A DNA stretch of 64,000 bases, from assembly GCA_041664365.1 (NCBI GenBank), contig JBAYKW010000006.1, positions 7,286-71,285 of the forward strand, given 5' to 3'. Each line of letters begins with the position of its first letter. Within the stretch, counting starts at the first letter, position 1. Source of the DNA: Patescibacteria group bacterium. GTDB lineage: Bacteria; Patescibacteriota; Patescibacteriia; UM-FILTER-42-10. A program made the translations under genes and the position numbers. Shown piece by piece: positions 9,440-35,712 of this stretch. Under the pieces are notes generated by a model, which was not told the DNA's origin, made no database searches, and saw only the letters and a program-made list of their open reading frames with translations.

Positions 9440-9556
9440 TTTCGGAATATAAAGCTTTAGCTTTATAAAAAAAGGTAAGGCTAAAGCCTTACATTCCATG
9501 TTGTTTTATTTTTTAGGGTAAGTTACCACCACACCCAAATTGGGTGTGGGGGCTTT

Positions 9557-9794
9557 CCAAAAAACCCAGATTTAATAATCCCAAACCGGTCGCATGTCGG
9601 AGCGCGCGGGCTGGTTTTAATTTGGATTCCCGGGCCAAGCCCGGCCAATTTGAATAAATCTAAGCCATACATATTTAATGCAAAAATTGGACGGGCAAGC
9701 CCGAGAATAACAGACTTACTCCCTCCTTGTCATTCCCGCGCAGGCGGGAATCCACCATTACTATAGCCCGACTATTGTTTTAGCGGGAATCCAC
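9557..9794. repeat. Composite repeat block: R1 copy C, then R2-like hairpins in inverted orientation
   Basis: CCAAAAAACCCAGATTT...AAACCGGTCGCATGTCGGAGCGCG (R1); TGGATTCCCGGGCCAAGCCCGG and TGTCATTCCCGCGCAGGCGGGAATCCA (R2-like). It separates the GSDH gene from the AT-rich island. Confidence 0.45.
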
Positions 9795-15099: not shown

Positions 15100-15230
15100 A
15101 ATGGTATCCTCAATTAATTAAAACTTAAATAACTTTCTCTGAGTGTCTCAAAATCAATAACGCCATATACAGACGAGCGTATGCCCGCCTTGACTCGCCG
15201 TCTGCGGCGAGGCAGGCTACGTTGCTAATT

Positions 15231-16166
15231 TTACCTTTTTCTTTCCCGGCCTTTTATATATCTATCCAAAGCCTCTTTTGAGCTTAGCCAATTTCGTCCT
15301 TCTTTGTAGGCCTCGAGTTTGCCCTGTCTTACTAGTAAGTTTAAATATTTAGCTGAGTAAGAAGTTTTTTTTGTTAGTTCCTTCAAAGAAATTAATTTTT
15401 CCTTATTTTTTTTAGAGGATAAAGTCTTTAAGTATATATCAAAAGACCGCTCAACTGTTTGAGCTATGAAGTTAACTAGTGATGCATAATCACCGGTATC
15501 GGCTTTAGCCAAGACGTTGTAGTATTTTTTTCTATCATTTTTTAGTATGATAGTTAGAGGATAGCCACTTTTCATCAATATTAGATTCATAGCTAATCTA
15601 GCCGTACGGCCATTGCCGTCAAAAAATGGGTGAATCTGTACCAATTTGTGATGAAATAAAGCAGCCAGTTCAACCGTTGGGATCTTGCTGTTATTTTTTA
15701 GCCAAACTAATAAACTTTCCATTAATTTCGGCACTTCAATAGCATGGGGTGGTGTATGCTTAGCACCCATGATAAAAACATTGGCAGTTCTGTATTTTCC
15801 AGCTTGTTCTTTTTCTGTTTCTTGGACAACAATTTGGTGGATAGAGCGGATTAACCTTTCAGAAATAGTATTTTGTTTGTTTTTATCAACCAAATCATAG
15901 AGATATTCTAAAGCTGCATATTGGTCTTTAGTTTCCAGGTGGTCTTTTAGAGGCTTGCCTTTAACTGTAATGCCCTCATTGATAACTAAAAAAGTTTCTT
16001 TGAGGGTTAGACTATTACCTTCTATAGCATTAGAATTATAGGTCATTTCTAACCTTAGTTTTTCTTGCAGTTTTTTGACTGCTACTTTAGGCAATGGCCG
16101 TTGTTTATTTAATTCTTTTCTTTTAGCTTCCAAACGAGAGGCGATTGTTTTGTGCAGATATTTCAT
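15231..16166 (-). CDS. Fic/DOC family protein with C-terminal HTH-like domain
   Basis: Fic motif HPFFDGNGRTARL (HPFx[DE]GNGR). 311 aa. The 8-bp inverted repeat ATGGTATA-N15-TATACCAT at 16171-16215 just upstream is a candidate operator. Confidence 0.85.
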   Translation of the reverse strand: MKYLHKTIASRLEAKRKELNKQRPLPKVAVKKLQEKLRLEMTYNSNAIEGNSLTLKETFLVINEGITVKGKPLKDHLETKDQYAALEYLYDLVDKNKQNTISERLIRSIHQIVVQETEKEQAGKYRTANVFIMGAKHTPPHAIEVPKLMESLLVWLKNNSKIPTVELAALFHHKLVQIHPFFDGNGRTARLAMNLILMKSGYPLTIILKNDRKKYYNVLAKADTGDYASLVNFIAQTVERSFDIYLKTLSSKKNKEKLISLKELTKKTSYSAKYLNLLVRQGKLEAYKEGRNWLSSKEALDRYIKGRERKR

Positions 16167-16373
16167 AGTAATTGTTTAATATGGTATAAGTAGTTTATTA
16201 CAGTATACCATATTAAGGAAAAAAGTAAAGTTAGCAATGTAAGCGGACCCTGAGCGCGACCCCGAGCGTATTCAAGGGGGGGGGAAGTCGAAGCGGCCGG
16301 GAGCGATTTCTGCACAACTGGTTATTATACAAAGCTGACTTCACGGTGAAAGTAACATAATCCCTACTAGGAA

Positions 16374-31442: not shown

Positions 31443-33353
31443 GTGGGAAAAGATAACAATACAGCGGAAGAAAATCCATCAGTTGAAAAAAATCCTGAAG
31501 GTAGGAATAAATTTTCAAACATGTTTTCAGTTATTAAAAAAAGCAAAAAAAATAACGACGGTTCTTCAGATAAAGACAAATGGATAAAAAAGCATAAACT
31601 GATGGAGAAAAAACTGGTAACTTCGCTGAACGATAAAAAAATTCCGACCTACCGCCAATTCAAATATCTACCGCGCTATTTTACCAAAAAAGAATCTACC
31701 ATTGTACAGATTGCGCTGACTGTTTTCATTATTTCGTTCCTGTTTGTTTTGGTCAGGGTTTATCAGACCGTAACCCATGTTGTTCCTCAATCCGGCGGAA
31801 AGTATACGGAAGCATTGGTCGGATCGCCAAAGTATATCAATCCGATACTGTCTCAAACCAACGACACGGATATGGATATCGCCAGATTAGTTTTTTCCGG
31901 TTTATTGAAAATTGATTCAGATTTGAAATTAGTAAACGATCTTGCGGAAAAGTACGAAATATCCGAGGACCAGAAAGAATACACGGTGTATTTGCGCAAG
32001 GATCTGAAATTCCATGACGGTCAAGACCTGAACGCTGATGACGTATTGTTTACCTTTGAAAGTATCCAGGATACGAGCTATCGAAGCCCGTTATATCTGA
32101 ATTTCAGCGGTGTGGGATTGCAGAGGATTGATGATTATACAGTCAAATTTGTTTTGCAGGAACCTTTCACTCCGTTTTTATCCAGTTTAACTTTTGGTAT
32201 TTTACCGGAACATATTTGGGCCGAAATATCGCCGGAATCAGCGTATCTGGCTGAATATAATTTGAAACCAATCGGTTCCGGGCCGTTTCAATTCAATAAT
32301 TATACAAAAGACAAAAACGGAAATATTAAATCATACGAACTAAAGAAATTTGAAAGTTTTTATGATAATAAACCGTATTTGGATCAGATTACTTTTAAGT
32401 TTTATCCGGATCCTATATCGGCAATGGACGCGGCAAAGAATAAGAATGTTGATGGCGTGAGCTTTGTCGCCAATGAATATAAGGAAGAACTACAAAAAAG
32501 AAATGGAAATATAGAATATCATTCCCTACGTTTACCCCAGTATGCCGCGGTGTTTTTCAACCAGAAGAATGAACTGCTGAAGACCAAAACCGTGAGAGAA
32601 GCGCTGGCCTATGCTGTTGATAAGCAATCAATCCTACAGAATGCGTTAAACGGGGAAGGCGAGATAATCAATGGTCCAATATTGCCGGGTTATGTCGGTT
32701 ATAATCCTGAGATTAGAAAGTATGAGTTTAACCTGGATGAAGCTAGGCGGATTTTGGAGGAAGATGGCTGGAAGTACCCGGATGCTGTTGACGGTGAGCC
32801 GGCGCCTACGGTCCGCGTTAAGGACGGCGCGGAACTGGCGTTCGCGATTTCTACTATTAATTCATCGGAATATCTGGCGACACTTACGATAATTAAACAA
32901 GCATGGGAAAGTATTGGGGTACGTTTAGAGGTAAAGGAATATTCAACCAAAGATATTCAGAAAAGAGTGATTAAGCCACGCGCATATGAGGCGCTGTTAT
33001 TCGGAGAAATAGTCGGAACTGATCCGGATCCGTATCCTTTTTGGCATTCTTCGCAGAGCAGGGACCCGGGCCTGAATCTTGCAGTGTTCTATAATAAAGA
33101 TATTGATCAGCTGTTGGAAGAGGCCAGAAAAACGAATGATGAAGAACAACGTCGACTGAAATATTTGCATTTCCAAAACATTCTAGCAGACGAGATCCCC
33201 GCGATCTTTTTATACAATCCGGTTTATACATACGGTTTGGATGAAAAAGTCAAAGGATTGGAGGGTCAATATATTTCCGTCCCCTCAGACCGTTTCTCCG
33301 GTATTTTAAATTGGTTTATCAAAACCAACCGTAGATGGGGAAAGGAGTCTTAG
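31443..33353 (+). CDS. ABC transporter substrate-binding protein, family 5 (peptide/nickel), membrane-anchored
   Basis: SBP_bac_5-like core. N-terminal lysine-rich stretch then TM anchor (IALTVFIISFLFVL). The track start is an alternative GTG; the true start may be a downstream Met. Confidence 0.8.
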   Translation: MGKDNNTAEENPSVEKNPEGRNKFSNMFSVIKKSKKNNDGSSDKDKWIKKHKLMEKKLVTSLNDKKIPTYRQFKYLPRYFTKKESTIVQIALTVFIISFLFVLVRVYQTVTHVVPQSGGKYTEALVGSPKYINPILSQTNDTDMDIARLVFSGLLKIDSDLKLVNDLAEKYEISEDQKEYTVYLRKDLKFHDGQDLNADDVLFTFESIQDTSYRSPLYLNFSGVGLQRIDDYTVKFVLQEPFTPFLSSLTFGILPEHIWAEISPESAYLAEYNLKPIGSGPFQFNNYTKDKNGNIKSYELKKFESFYDNKPYLDQITFKFYPDPISAMDAAKNKNVDGVSFVANEYKEELQKRNGNIEYHSLRLPQYAAVFFNQKNELLKTKTVREALAYAVDKQSILQNALNGEGEIINGPILPGYVGYNPEIRKYEFNLDEARRILEEDGWKYPDAVDGEPAPTVRVKDGAELAFAISTINSSEYLATLTIIKQAWESIGVRLEVKEYSTKDIQKRVIKPRAYEALLFGEIVGTDPDPYPFWHSSQSRDPGLNLAVFYNKDIDQLLEEARKTNDEEQRRLKYLHFQNILADEIPAIFLYNPVYTYGLDEKVKGLEGQYISVPSDRFSGILNWFIKTNRRWGKES

Positions 33354-33476
33354 TATTGTGACAAATTAAAATCAGGGGATGTGGTGAAACTGCCATAAAC
33401 CGCTAAAGGGTTCATGGCAATCCAGTTGTACGTGATTATTAGACTAACATTTTTAGTGTACGGTTTTTAAAAATTA

Positions 33477-33514
33477 GGGGATGTGGTGAAACTGGCATAC
33501 ACGCAGCGTTCACC
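33477..33514 (+). pseudogene. tRNA-Leu-like 5' fragment (acceptor 5' strand GGGGATG, D-arm, anticodon stem 5' strand; no 3' partner)
   Basis: GGGGATGTGGTGAAACTGGCATACACGCAGCGTTCACC is 34/38 identical to the 5' half of the intact tRNA at 33618. A shorter copy (GGGGATGTGGTGAAACTGCC) lies at 33375-33394. Confidence 0.5.
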
Positions 33515-33617
33515 TGCCCGCCCGTCCATCACGCATATGCGGGATGGACGGACCCGCCATCTTGCCAGATTTATTGGTAAGATATATCTTTTCAAAGTTA
33601 AAGTACATAAAAAACAT

Positions 33618-33704
33618 GCCGAAGTGGTGAAACTGGTATACACGCAGCGTTCAGGTCGCTGTGGGCGCAAGCCTGTGGGAGTTCGACTCTCCCCTTCGGC
33701 ACCA
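33618..33704 (+). tRNA. tRNA-Leu (anticodon CAG), class II with long variable arm, CCA encoded
   Basis: GCCGAAG-TG-GTG-AAACTGGTATA-CAC-G-CAGCG-TTCAGGT-CGCTG-TGGGCGCAAGCCTGT-GGGAG-TTCGACT-CTCCC-CTTCGGC-A-CCA. Anticodon loop identical to E. coli tRNA-Leu(CAG). Confidence 0.9.
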
Positions 33705-33848
33705 AAATTCTATTATTCACTATGGCAAGGCCCGCCCGCCAGAGTGCCTCTGGCACGTCGGGCGCGGCAGGCGGGGGTCGCTGTGGGCGCAAGCCCGTCC
33801 AATTTCTAAGAACACATATCAAATCTTTCTTTGACGCAAAAATTGTAC

Positions 33849-33888
33849 GGGCAAGCTCGTGGGAGTTCGACTCTCCCCATCCCCACCA
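33849..33888 (+). pseudogene. tRNA-Leu-like 3' fragment (variable arm, T-arm, acceptor 3' strand CATCCCC-A-CCA complementary to the GGGGATG fragments)
   Basis: GGGCAAGCTCGTGGGAGTTCGACTCTCCCCATCCCCACCA. A further anticodon-stem/variable-arm fragment GGTCGCTGTGGGCGCAAGCC lies at 33777-33796. Confidence 0.5.
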
Positions 33889-33936
33889 GAAAATTATTTG
33901 AAAGCTATATTATTTGAATTAAATCATTATCAATTT

Positions 33937-35712
33937 ATGAATCCAAAAAACACAAAACATCGTTCAAAACAAAATAACCGGATCAGAGTTTATCGCGCAG
34001 ATACCGCCGAGATAAAGCAGGATAAAAAAGAAGAAATGAATAAAAGAGGCGAGCCGGTACTGAAAGTTATTGTCATGGGTGGAAATGAAGAAGTGGGTCG
34101 CAATATGACGATTCTGGAATACGGCAAGGACATTATTATCATTGATATGGGTCTGCAATTCCCCGAGGAAGATATGCCGGGGATTGATTATATTATCCCG
34201 AATATTTCTTACCTTAAGGGTAAAGAAAAAAATATTAAGGGGGTAATTATCACTCATGGTCACTATGATCATATCGGCGCTATTCCACATATCATGAATA
34301 AAATCGGAAATCCGCCGATTTATGGCAGTCCGTTAACACTCGGTATTATTGCCAAAAGACAGGACGATTTCAAACAAAGCGGAAAATTGAATCTGAATCC
34401 GGTCAGCAATAAGGATATTTTAACTATCGGCCGGTTTAAAATTGAATTCTTCGGCGTCAGTCATAATATCCCGGGGTCATTTGGCGTAATTGTTCATACT
34501 CCGGTTGGTCCGATCGTGCATACGGGAGACTTTAAACTGGATCTTCAGCCGGTCGGTGACGTGGAACCGGATATTGCCAAGATTGCCAGACTAGGTGAAA
34601 AAAATGTGCTGGCTCTATTGTGTGACAGTACCAACGCAACCCAGCCCGGTCATCAGTTCACTGAAACTGAAATCCAGGGGAATCTGGAAGATATTATCCG
34701 AATGGCTCAGGGCAGAATTATTGTCGGAACATTCGCCTCCCTGTTAATGAGGGTTCAGCAAATTATCCAGTTGGCGGAAAAATACAACCGCAAAGTTGTG
34801 ATTGACGGATACAGTATGAAAACAAATATTGAAATTGCTCAAAAGCTTGGGTACTTAAAAATCAACAAAGGCACTTTACTGCCAATGAGTGAATTACAAA
34901 ACTATCCAAGTCGCAGGATTCTGGTACTTTGCACTGGTGCTCAGGGTGAGGGTAGGGCAGTACTGATGCGTATCGCCAACCGCGAACATAAGGTGATCAG
35001 AATTGAGCCGGAAGACACGGTTGTATTTTCATCTTCCGTCGTACCGGGTAATGAAAGATCTGTTCAGAGACTGGTTGATACTCTGTACCGCGAAGGCGCG
35101 GAAGTAATCAACTATAAAATGATGGACATTCATGCGGGCGGACACGCGAAGCAGGAAGACCTTAAATTGATTATTAAACTGATCAATCCAAAATATTTTG
35201 TTCCGATTGAAGGCAATCATTCATTCTTGAAAGTCCATGCTAAAGTAGCAATGTCTGTCGGTTTTGATCCGAAGAAAATATTCGTCGCCGATAACGGACA
35301 AATCATGGAATTTACCAAGACAACCGGACGACTGACCTCAAAAAAAGTTCCATCTGATTATGTGTTTGTGGACGGGTTGGGCGTGGGTGATGTTTCCAAC
35401 GTGGTTCTACGTGATCGTCGGATGATGTCTGATGACGGTATGCTGGTTGTAATAGCCACAATCGATGCAAAGACCGGCAATCTGATCGGCAATCCGGATA
35501 TTATCTCCCGCGGGTTTGTATATATGAAGGAGAATAAAAAACTAATCTCAGATACCCGGGAAAAAGTGAAGAATTTGCTGAATGACAAACATCCGAATTC
35601 ATCGGCCAACGATGCTTACATAAAAAACAAAATCAGGGATGATATCGGTCAGTTCCTATTCAGCAAAACACAAAGGAGACCGATGGTTTTGCCGGTGGTG
35701 ATTGAGGTGTAA
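33937..35712 (+). CDS. rnj: Ribonuclease J (metallo-beta-lactamase / beta-CASP)
   Basis: HGHYDHIGA (HxHxDH), beta-CASP and C-terminal domain. The track start 33859 lies inside the tRNA fragment. Alternative start at MNKRGEPVLKV (34036). Confidence 0.85.
   Translation: MNPKNTKHRSKQNNRIRVYRADTAEIKQDKKEEMNKRGEPVLKVIVMGGNEEVGRNMTILEYGKDIIIIDMGLQFPEEDMPGIDYIIPNISYLKGKEKNIKGVIITHGHYDHIGAIPHIMNKIGNPPIYGSPLTLGIIAKRQDDFKQSGKLNLNPVSNKDILTIGRFKIEFFGVSHNIPGSFGVIVHTPVGPIVHTGDFKLDLQPVGDVEPDIAKIARLGEKNVLALLCDSTNATQPGHQFTETEIQGNLEDIIRMAQGRIIVGTFASLLMRVQQIIQLAEKYNRKVVIDGYSMKTNIEIAQKLGYLKINKGTLLPMSELQNYPSRRILVLCTGAQGEGRAVLMRIANREHKVIRIEPEDTVVFSSSVVPGNERSVQRLVDTLYREGAEVINYKMMDIHAGGHAKQEDLKLIIKLINPKYFVPIEGNHSFLKVHAKVAMSVGFDPKKIFVADNGQIMEFTKTTGRLTSKKVPSDYVFVDGLGVGDVSNVVLRDRRMMSDDGMLVVIATIDAKTGNLIGNPDIISRGFVYMKENKKLISDTREKVKNLLNDKHPNSSANDAYIKNKIRDDIGQFLFSKTQRRPMVLPVVIEV

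Follow-up and report, generated by a model that had tools for sequence, protein, structure and literature searches.

Anatomy of the tRNA-Leu(CAG) locus

We analysed a stretch of 64,000 nucleotides (hereafter the window) from a Patescibacteria group bacterium (assembly GCA_041664365.1, contig JBAYKW010000006.1, positions 7,286 to 71,285), in which a cluster of tRNA-Leu sequences lies between the gene for a family-5 solute-binding protein (SBP_bac_5, 31443-33353) and the gene for RNase J (33937-35712). The sole intact tRNA gene in these 64 kb, based on both ARAGORN and Rfam, is a tRNA-Leu(CAG) at 33618-33704, which scores 50.2 bits against Rfam RF00005 (gathering score 29) and thus belongs to the tRNA family. 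An initial annotation, made from the letters of the sequence alone, had described this gene, two 5' tRNA fragments at 33375 and 33477, further tRNA pieces downstream, and GC-rich hairpins among them, and we find each of these where it had been placed.

The flanking pieces were recovered independently by a repeat finder, by self-BLAST (E-values of 8e-11, 3e-7 and 3e-7 in a 5-kb slice) and by a tRNA-Leu profile search (E = 1.7e-5 and 9e-5). Both 5' fragments open with GGGGATGTGGTGAAACTG. On the other side of the intact gene, 33776-33798 and 33859-33878 are 100% identical to its positions 37-56 and 58-77, respectively, and the second of these continues with CATCCCCACCA to 33888. The GGGGATG at 33375 and at 33477 is complementary to the CATCCCC at 33878-33884, and neither pairs with the GCCGAAG/CTTCGGC of the intact gene, as had been noted initially. 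The features of the cluster are as follows.

33375-33392, + strand: oldest relic, 18 nt from the 5' end of a GGGGATG-type tRNA-Leu (from the acceptor 5' strand into the D-loop), broken at G18/G19
33393-33476, + strand: left flank of the older layer, opening with the hairpin CCATAAACC..GGTTCATGG (33393-33417)
33477-33512, + strand: exon 1 of the outer gene (36 nt), positions 1-35 of a GGGGATG-type tRNA-Leu(CAG), ending with the TTCA of the anticodon loop
33513-33775, + strand: insert 1 (263 nt), termini CCTGCCCGCC...GGCAGGCGGG, holding the intact tRNA; precise by comparison with locus L082
33513-33524, + strand: 5' strand of the closing helix of insert 1, CCTGCCCGCCCG, which pairs with 33759-33771 in the minimum-free-energy fold
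33522-33551, + strand: GC-rich hairpin of the insert 1 left flank, 15-nt arms that are 93% complementary, bordered by repeated CCCGCC
33562-33590, + strand: promoter-like TTGCCA-17-TATCTT, 28 nt 5' of the inner tRNA, a consensus match only
33618-33704, + strand: inner, intact tRNA-Leu(CAG), acceptor GCCGAAG/CTTCGGC, with encoded CCA (ARAGORN, Rfam)
33731-33771, + strand: GC-rich hairpin of the right flank, CCGCCAGAG..CTCTGGC (33731-33765), with the 3' strand of the closing helix (33759-33771)
33776-33792, + strand: exon 2 of the outer gene (17 nt), anticodon-loop positions 36-38, 3' strand of the anticodon stem, and variable arm to its loop (GGTCGCTGTGGGCGCAA)
33793-33854, + strand: insert 2 (62 nt) in the variable-arm loop, AT-rich, its ends GCCCGTCCAATTT...AAATTGTACGGGC paired; precise by comparison with L082
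33855-33888, + strand: exon 3 of the outer gene (34 nt), 3' strand of the variable arm, T arm, acceptor CATCCCC, and ACCA
9632-9703, + strand: second copy of insert 2, intergenic, in the loop of a GC hairpin (GGGC-CAA^GCCCG)

The comparison that reveals this anatomy is with L082, one of 163 related loci (L001-L163) that we fetched as relatives from genome and metagenome collections. L082 comes from a metagenome contig of 500 kb; its RNase J and that of the window are 86% identical, and at the same position it has an uninterrupted GGGGATG-type tRNA-Leu(CAG). The three exons of the window, when joined, make 87 nt that ARAGORN calls as tRNA-Leu(CAG), so that the outer gene also qualifies as a tRNA, and 85 of the 87 are identical to the uninterrupted gene (L082:2370-2456), with both differences in loops. 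Exon 1 accounts for 35 identities in 36, while 33851-33890 is 100% identical to L082:2419-2458. Both insertions are exact to the base by this comparison, with no target base lost or duplicated; the sole ambiguity is a repeated GCAA at insert 2. The outer pieces are a single complete tRNA-Leu(CAG) gene cut by two precise insertions. The uninterrupted orthologue thus bears out the initial proposal that an ancestral tRNA-Leu gene was disrupted and holds a replacement tRNA-Leu. That proposal had invoked one insertion of ~330 bp accompanied by partial duplications; there are instead two insertions, of 263 nt and 62 nt, in two different loops, and the supposed duplications are exons of one gene.

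The 412-nt region 33477-33888 folds far better than its shuffles (z = -6.1), and its minimum-free-energy fold includes the inner cloverleaf as well as the closing helix and the acceptor stem of the outer gene. The inner gene is presumed to be the working one. ARAGORN run on the cluster in its intron mode returned the inner tRNA only and no second gene.

The fragment at 33375-33392 is a separate, older layer. The same break at G18/G19, followed by the same flank, is found in L001 (there after positions 1-18 of a GCCGAAG-type gene) and in L012/L081. The segment 33381-33418, which comprises part of the older relic and the hairpin CCATRAACC..GGTTCATGG, is 94.7% identical to L001:2696-2733, at a distance at which 50% of four-fold sites differ. 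This conservation is far above that of neutral sequence and raises the questions both of a function and of a recent exchange.

The two inserts

Insert 1 splits the anticodon loop between bases 35 and 36 (TTCA^GG). Its closing helix brings the exon ends together, and its ends are terminal inverted repeats, in which CCTGCCCGCCCG pairs with CGGGCGCGGCAGG; it is non-coding, and in these two respects it resembles a miniature inverted-repeat transposable element (MITE). Its junctions read TTCA|CCTGCC on the left and GGCGGG|GGT on the right, and no direct repeat flanks it. The part of the insert that is not tRNA amounts to 176 nt. Within it, the CTTGCCA of the promoter-like site pairs with TGGCAAG at 33723-33729; CTTGCC occurs also in the left flanks of L003 and L006, and the CCGCCAGAG motif recurs in the inserts of L002 and L004. 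Neither an integrase nor a phage gene turned up among the window ORFs tested, and insert 1 itself holds no gene of this or any other kind apart from the tRNA. Rfam, run permissively (E up to 10) over 33250-34000, returned only tRNA-related and chance matches and no ribozyme. Among these, a match to transfer-messenger RNA (19.9 bits) was rejected, as it is merely the 3' relic.

Insert 2 is likewise non-coding with paired ends (GCCCGTCCAATTT with AAATTGTACGGGC), as a MITE would be, and is present in two copies in the window. Insert 2 together with its surrounding GC hairpin aligns to 9632-9703 with a local score of 48, compared to 18.6 +/- 2.0 (maximum 28) for 200 shuffles. Insert 1, by comparison, shares termini only, and does so with other genomes.

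The intergenic region 9500-9780, which contains the second copy of insert 2, is crowded with GC-rich hairpins (CCACACCCAAATTGGGTGTGG, CCCGGGCCAAGCCCGG, CCCGCGCAGGCGGG). Upstream in it, GTCGGAGCGCGCGGGCTGG resembles the right end of insert 1 (GTCGGGCGCGGCAGGCGGGG).

The locus in related genomes

A tRNA-Leu(CAG) gene lies directly 5' of RNase J in 98 of the 163 related loci, based on ARAGORN, and the order is thus conserved. The GCCGAAG-type gene, which is the inner gene of the window, is the only tRNA-Leu at the locus in L001, L002, L162 and L012. In L162 and L163 it stands as a single gene without any relic, in line with the initial expectation of a single tRNA-Leu in related genomes, and no relative shows an ordinary tRNA tandem.

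We compared four-fold degenerate sites of RNase J, at which the window differs from L001 or L002 (96% amino-acid identity) by 50%, from L162 by 54%, from L012 by 60% and from L082 by 68%; L001 and L002 differ from each other by 33%. From these figures, neutral sequence is close to saturation among the window and these relatives. Given this saturation, the mere two differences in 87 positions between the outer gene and its working L082 counterpart mean either that the interruption is very recent on this time scale or that the exons are constrained.

The locus itself differs from relative to relative. L001 has an insertion of 108 nt, made up of 90 nt and an 18-nt repeat of the tRNA 5' end, L002 has one of 132 nt, made up of 111 nt and a 21-nt repeat of the tRNA 3' end, and two further indels separate these two at the locus. 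L004 has a 33-nt direct repeat that extends 12 nt beyond the tRNA, and L012/L081 have two distinct 5' relics, of GGGGATG and GCCGCGG types, 5' of a GCCGAAG-type gene. Acceptor stems at this locus are diverse (GCCGAAG, GCCGCGG, GCCGGGA, GGGCGAG, GGGGATG, GGGGATA, GCGGACG, GCCCAGG, GCTGGGA and others), and they differ by several compensated base pairs even where RNase J is 86-96% identical.

Nested tRNA genes recur in other Patescibacteria

Relics of tRNA-Leu lie beside an intact gene in about 20 of the 98 syntenic loci, based on self-BLAST and profile searches. The relics upstream are all 5' parts and those downstream are all 3' parts, without exception. We scored a true nest where the outer 5' and 3' halves have complementary acceptor strands and the inner gene is of a different type. 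At least nine loci are nested in this sense, with unlike inner and outer acceptor stems, including the following.

L003: outer GCCGCGG, inner GCTGGGA
L009: outer GGGGATG, inner GGGCGAG
L016: outer GCCGGGG, inner GCCGCGG
L049, three layers: outer GGGCGAG, then GGGGATG, inner GCCGAAA
L050/L114/L057: outer GGGCGAG, inner GGGGATA
L052: outer GGGGATG, inner GGGCGCG
L083: outer GCCGCGG, inner GGGCAAG

The breaks fall in loops: at the boundary of D-loop and stem (24/25) in L003, L049 and L111, at 35/36 in the window, L052 and L073, and in the T loop in L002, L004, L068 and L078. In addition, tRNA-Ala(UGC) genes are present in 18 of the fetched loci, four of which hold tRNA-Ala relics. In one of the four, L111 (6460-6749), an intact tRNA-Ala(UGC) flanked by an 11-bp inverted repeat (CGAAAGCAAAT/ATTTGCTTTCG) is preceded by a pair of dissimilar tRNA-Ala 5' halves, each cut off after position 35 (TTTG^); the others are L062, L074 and L080. 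In every case the isoacceptor in the insert is that of its target, and none of the 163 loci has an interrupted tRNA alone. Where only a 3' repeat accompanies the intact gene, all six such repeats carry the same acceptor strand as that gene, five of them being 100% identical to it and the sixth (L066) 96% over the segment of T arm and acceptor.

Some loci hold longer arrangements. In L114 (1416-2081) and L057 (1-282), an array comprises three 5' fragments at a spacing of 57 nt, an intact GGGGATA-type tRNA-Leu, and four 68-nt 3' fragments at a spacing of 102 nt; its outermost pair is of GGGCGAG type. In L068 (2084-2405), a 161-nt unit occurs twice in tandem 3' of the tRNA-Leu, the unit being the 3' portion of the tRNA from the variable arm onward, its T loop (TTC^GAGT) split by 108 nt of GC-rich sequence. 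In L049 (1617-2600, - strand), a transposase of insertion-sequence (IS) type, preceded by a small open reading frame (ORF) with a helix-turn-helix, lies between the three-layer nest and RNase J. This transposase has, by eye, an rve/DDE core and is ~0.5 kb 3' of the relics. The ORFs between relics and RNase J in L015, L049, L070 and L083 include no integrase recognizable by eye, which is how they were assessed, Pfam not having been run on them; those of L015, L070 and L083 look unrelated by the same inspection.

In L012 (2780-2830) and L081 (1310-1360), a 5' relic, GCCGCGGTGGT, is broken by a perfect GC hairpin, CCCGCCATCCGGCGGG, and CCCGCCATC from this area is also found in the left flank of insert 1 (33553-33561).

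Shared ends and target sites of the inserts

Only loci with relics have an intact tRNA flanked by GC-rich inverted repeats. Of 15 left junctions, 13 join a relic whose last base is A to an insert that starts with CC; on the right, the inserts terminate in GG. The inserts of the window and of L003 have identical 10-nt termini at both ends, terminal in both inserts, although they differ in the tRNA that they carry and in their site within the tRNA. Related termini, CTGCCCGCCAGTGC.../...GGCAGACGGG, are common to L049 and L111. A second family of termini, CCCCGCACCAA...TTGGTGCGGGGCAGG, occurs in L016, L088, L083, L052 and L070 and upstream in L004, and a third, CCCGCAC-T6...A5-GGTGCGGG, in L050 and L114. 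Alignments of the window's flanks with those of L001, L002, L162, L012, L003 and L006 found only GC motifs of 9-12 nt in common. Conserved termini around interiors that are free to change, at saturation of neutral sites, are as expected of ends that are recognized by an enzyme.

The left junction reads TTCA| in the window, L052, L073, L004 and L016/L088; the other left junctions have only the final A, and the insertion sites have little in common beyond this preceding A. In the smallest cassettes (L016, L049, L111), each flank of the tRNA measures just 15-23 nt. Subterminal hairpins are present in the window's insert (33522-33551 and 33731-33765) and absent from the minimal cassettes of L016 and L049. 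Site-specific recombination at a core shared by hairpin loops (CAGG, CA or TTCA) was tried as an explanation of the junctions and rejected, because none of these cores accounts for both junctions from case to case; only the (G)GTAGAC of L050 fits. Scans of viral contigs for the cassette termini gave only chance matches in GC-rich phages, none of them less than 400 nt from a tRNA.

Similar motifs occur elsewhere in the window. At 15184-15217 (- strand), the hairpin CCTGCCTCGCCGCAGACGGCGAGTCAAGGCGGG lies right after the stop codon of a Fic/DOC-family gene (15231-16166), and its end motifs, CCTGCCTCG...GAGGCGGG, are those of hairpins without tRNA in the D arms of relics in L009 (2560-2601) and L052 (2413-2443). 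At 16243-16301 there is a 59-nt GC-rich intergenic block with the motifs GACCCCGAGCG and GTCGAAGCGG; similar motifs (GACCCCGAG, GTCGAAGG) are found in the L004 insert 3' of the tRNA (2820-2880).

State of the outer genes

Older outer copies decay. The outer anticodon stem of L003 is broken, the outermost layer of L049 has a mutated G18/G19 and no anticodon arm, and the outer copies of L050 and L114 share a T-T mismatch. L088 lacks most of the 3' half that is retained by its sister L016, which derives from the same event. In the related pairs of cassettes L016/L088 and L050/L114, changes in the flank helices are uncompensated, and thus there is no sign of selection on pairing. On this evidence most outer genes are dead, and we treat that of the window as a very young pseudogene, with a small chance that it is still processed, given that it has no lesion of its own.

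Known signals for the removal of the inserts were sought by hand threading. At the junctions of the window and of L016, no bulge-helix-bulge with a 4-bp central helix could be formed: CGTT would need AACG as its partner, and GGCG is present. The base at -1 of insert 1 is A (TTCA|) and not the U of the group I boundary rule, and the last base of the insert is G; boundary rules of group I and of group II introns, threaded in this way, gave no fit and both were rejected. ARAGORN run on the joined halves of other nests was not discriminating, since many join points are tolerated.

Proposed serial replacement by small cassettes, and its alternatives

We consider it probable (roughly 60%) that the locus records the serial replacement of its tRNA-Leu(CAG) gene by insertion of small cassettes. 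In our best reading, small non-autonomous cassettes with inverted-repeat ends insert in tRNA loops and supply a replacement tRNA. The resident gene of the window would have been of the GGGGATG type, which is still uninterrupted in L082. A 263-nt non-coding cassette, with GC-rich self-pairing ends, a complete GCCGAAG-type tRNA-Leu(CAG) and a promoter-like site, would have entered it between anticodon-loop bases 35 and 36, and the inner gene would have taken over the supply of the tRNA. A second small element with paired ends (insert 2) would have lodged in the outer variable loop, and the fragment at 33375 would be left over from an earlier round. The anatomy of the locus, the exactness of both insertions, their recurrence in relatives, the common termini and the decay of older outer copies are all observed; from them we infer that the cassette moved as a unit, by the action of a recombinase or transposase encoded elsewhere. 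Selection would account for insert and target being of the same isoacceptor, since a host whose single-copy tRNA gene is hit can persist only where the insert restores that tRNA; a cassette that restores the tRNA it destroys explains this match without any homing to sequence.

Steps after insertion may account for the other patterns. The overlapping tRNA segments form direct repeats 100-250 nt apart that can recombine, and a one-sided recombination would delete one flank, leaving the relic patterns of L001 (5') and of L002, L004, L078, L066 and L068 (3'). Where the stems are unlike, such a deletion would leave a mismatched stem, and this would be the reason that the nests which last are those with unlike stems. 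Gene conversion between copies may have made the 5' ends of relics match the resident type (GGGGATG twice in the window, GCCGAAG twice in L001), and unequal crossing-over or collapse of the assembly may have produced the 57-nt and 102-nt arrays of L114/L057.

Several observations weigh against serial replacement by cassettes. The interiors of the cassettes are not conserved between genomes, which share only the terminal ~10 nt on either side and short GC motifs, and each match of a terminus or motif is, taken singly, of borderline significance. Duplications of the target vary (none in the window and L003, an ambiguous 4 nt at insert 2, 6-7 nt in L050), so that the duplication of fixed length that characterizes a MITE is not seen across these four, and the insertion sites vary as well (24/25, 35/36, variable loop, T loop); this variety of duplications and sites fits no known transposition chemistry. 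No transposase, integrase or other recombinase was found among 25 ORFs of the window by Pfam, and neither an empty/filled polymorphism nor an excision junction was seen for insert 1 itself. One family of left flanks precedes three different tRNA types (window, L001, L012), which means that gene conversion or allele replacement must be invoked. The left and right units of the L114 array are unequal in number (3 versus 4), a feature for which unequal crossing-over or assembly collapse accounts better than repeated insertion does. Finally, the outer gene of the window carries no disabling mutation, its inactivity being read only from the interruptions.

The initial annotation had taken the cluster for the usual signature of repeated site-specific integration and excision at a tRNA gene. 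Integrase scars of this kind would be left by kilobase-sized elements or prophages that repeatedly integrated at a tRNA-Leu attachment site (attB), contributed tRNA segments from their own site (attP) and were later deleted to remnants of a few hundred bases like cis-mobilizable elements (CIMEs). The idea fits neighbours of the window: direct repeats of a tRNA end, such as an integrase leaves, exist at the locus in L001 (18-nt, 5'), L002 (21-nt, 3') and L004 (33-nt), with similar cases in L078, L066 and L068; terminal inverted repeats would be expected from core-type binding sites of an integrase; and the 6-7-nt core (G)GTAGAC of L050 is duplicated at both of its junctions. The anticodon loop and the T loop, moreover, are known as the sublocations that tRNA-targeting integrases prefer. 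Insert 1, however, does not suit the idea: it measures only 263 nt, its ends pair with each other, it lacks a direct repeat and it regenerates the target at neither junction. A 5' half that is abandoned with a complete tRNA of foreign type inside it is not what a single reciprocal crossover can yield. An integrase was found neither among the tested ORFs of the window nor next to any nested locus examined, where the only mobile gene seen is the rve-type transposase of L049, and the minimal cassettes (L016, L049, L111) would need extreme and exact reduction in each lineage. We thus consider integrase scars an unlikely origin of the nest, if one that deserves some weight, and the one-sided direct repeats of the relatives may reflect a parallel process at the same hot spot. 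Alternatively, foreign or sister-copy DNA bearing a tRNA-Leu gene could have been captured at breaks in the resident gene, through homology-facilitated illegitimate recombination or fold-back repair at hairpins, with no dedicated mobile element at all; the paired GC-rich flanks would then stem from the repair itself or from palindromic repeats that were already there. Sequence like that of a D-loop is found in right flanks (TTGGCAGAC in L049, TTGGTAGTC in L111), left junctions can be nearly palindromic with the preceding relic (GGCAGA|CCTGCC in L009), microhomologies at junctions are of varying length, GC-rich hairpins with the same ends and no tRNA occur, as at 15184-15217, and CCTGCCTGCCGGCAGGCAGG palindromes are found in several loci; competence genes, in addition, are probably common in Patescibacteria. 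Capture of this kind would rarely be exact to the base, as both insertions in the window are when compared to L082, and it would not lead us to expect identical 10-nt termini at both insert ends where neutral sites are saturated, or the A|CC...GG rule at 13 of 15 junctions. We regard it as quite unlikely.

The remaining two explanations deny either that the outer gene is dead or that the cluster is real. The outer gene might be functional, its inserts being introns, one of them host to a tRNA, that an undescribed bacterial pathway removes from the transcript, or its pieces being joined through the closing helices like the split tRNAs of Nanoarchaeum. Its 85 of 87 identities to a working orthologue without any disabling change, at saturated neutral sites, would agree with this, as would the position of both inserts in loops, closed by helices that bring the exon ends together in a fold with z = -6.1; GC-rich complementary flanks of half-genes resemble those reported for archaeal split tRNAs (PMC3293823, PMC4033280). 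The host, however, is a bacterium; hand threading found no bulge-helix-bulge, Rfam no ribozyme, and the base at -1 is A instead of U. An intact tRNA with the same anticodon is always present, outer copies elsewhere decay, to the point that L088 lost a part that L016 kept, and the pairing of the flanks changes without compensation in L016/L088 and L050/L114. Function of the outer gene is therefore improbable. An assembly artefact, in which strain variants of the tRNA locus were merged, could be suspected given that the data are metagenome assemblies and that the L114 array has 57-nt and 102-nt repeats in unequal copy numbers. Nevertheless, repeats in the cluster are at most 55 nt long, at 78% identity, and the MEGAHIT prefix k141 in the name of the 132.8-kb source contig (ENA ERZ27249449 k141_1477485) would point to an assembly k-mer of 141 nt, which is longer than these repeats. 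The unique GC-rich flanks are strain variants of nothing, and the pattern recurs over many unrelated assemblies. Moreover, the gene call P0002 of the Joint Genome Institute (JGI), said to be on a contig of 88 kb, starts with the translation of 33859 onward and so includes the 3' relic, which means that the 3' fragment is present in an independent assembly too. An artefact is thus scarcely credible.

Comparison with known systems

The systems closest to the one described here are integrative elements that target tRNA genes and the disrupted tRNA genes of archaea. The former, which include prophages, integrative and conjugative elements (ICEs) and genomic islands with tyrosine integrases, and CIMEs as their reduced forms, likewise use sites in anticodon and T loops, bring compensating tRNA sequence and leave fragments behind. 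The insert in the window differs in being only 263 nt long and non-coding, in carrying a whole tRNA of another acceptor type instead of the segment that would rebuild the target, whose 5' half is abandoned, and in having ends that pair, with no direct repeat and no integrase found nearby. Archaeal disrupted tRNA genes (those with multiple or non-canonical introns, split and tri-split) also have interruptions in loops, several of which are possible in one gene, and GC-rich complementary flanks. At the Caldiarchaeum tRNA-Thr locus, a mobile element is reported to have left a 5' tRNA fragment, with the fragment lying 5' of a complete copy brought by the insertion, as in the window; the inserted sequence there is described as a 1.8-kb element that encodes a recombinase (PMC3293823). 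Unlike the archaeal genes, those studied here belong to a bacterial host, have no bulge-helix-bulge and hold the replacement tRNA inside the insertion, while the interrupted copy is apparently dispensable and decays in other lineages.

Group I introns interrupt the anticodon loops of bacterial tRNAs (tRNA-Leu(UAA), fMet, Arg, Ile), and thus share with insert 1 an exact interruption of a tRNA-Leu in that loop. By contrast, Rfam finds no ribozyme core in the window's insert, the base at -1 is A and not U, the part that is not tRNA measures 176 nt in the window and ~30 nt in L016, and inserts lie in D, variable and T loops as well. Short non-autonomous palindromic repeats of reduced or AT-rich genomes, among them MITEs, repetitive extragenic palindromes and bacterial interspersed mosaic elements (REP/BIME), Rickettsia palindromic elements, mitochondrial GC clusters and palindrome-associated transposable elements (PATEs), are similarly small, GC-rich, hairpin-forming, non-coding and multi-copy, and can insert into genes including RNA genes. 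IS200/IS605 elements resemble insert 1 in making no target duplication. The PATE derived from IS200/IS605 inserts 3' of a fixed short target without duplication, has subterminal hairpins at both ends, and accompanies a Y1 transposase in the genome. Compared with palindromic repeats as a whole, the cassettes have no target duplication of fixed length, and the minimal ones lack separate subterminal hairpins. We know of no palindromic repeat that carries a complete tRNA as cargo or nests in the cognate tRNA gene. What distinguishes the present case is the combination of a miniature non-coding cassette, a complete replacement tRNA nested in its target, pairing termini and a bacterial host.

Mobile DNA classically lands in tRNA genes, and known elements repair the target by bringing the missing piece of the tRNA. 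Here, a whole tRNA gene is replaced from inside by a cassette without any protein gene, and the replacement appears repeatedly and independently across this large radiation of bacteria, in at least two isoacceptors. Should the cassettes be mobile, hardly any 'addictive' element known would be smaller, and the addiction would lie in the fact that a host that loses the cassette loses the tRNA; they would account for the divergence of acceptor stems between close relatives at one syntenic locus; and they would offer a bacterial parallel to archaeal disrupted tRNA genes, through which the origin of split and intron-bearing tRNA genes becomes testable. More tentatively, Patescibacteria might harbour an undescribed class of tiny selfish cassettes, complete tRNA genes with short GC-rich pairing ends, which insert exactly in the single-stranded loops of cognate tRNA genes and take over their function; such a class, which we consider doubtful at present, would imply Russian-doll arrays and a rapid horizontal turnover of acceptor-stem types at a fixed locus. 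In a bolder variant, the interrupted outer genes may be expressed through bacterial tRNA splicing or assembly from two pieces. We found no report in the literature searched of nested tRNA genes or arrays of tRNA relics in the candidate phyla radiation (CPR)/Patescibacteria, an absence that is no proof of novelty.

Genomic context and annotation

The RNase J just 3' of the cluster has its closest relatives in Patescibacteria metagenome-assembled genomes. The wider neighbourhood encodes UvrC, UvrD, SecG and a large FG-GAP protein, and Pfam showed housekeeping genes and no recombinase among the 25 ORFs that we tested, which are spread over the window. No tRNA was found in the 10 kb of the source contig upstream. 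Between 10088 and 12848 lies an island of low GC content (30-36% GC versus ~44% elsewhere) that encodes an HATPase_c_3 protein and a C-5 cytosine DNA methylase, and which looks like a restriction-modification or defence module.

Relics of tRNA are here mis-annotated as coding sequence, and could also muddle tRNA counts in metagenome-assembled genomes. The longest ORF of RNase J (33859-35712) opens at a GTG within the tRNA relic, while the NCBI/ENA call begins at the ATG at 33937 (591 aa). The JGI call P0002 (617 aa) uses the GTG in the relic, and thus has the spurious N-terminus VGVRLSPSPPEN.

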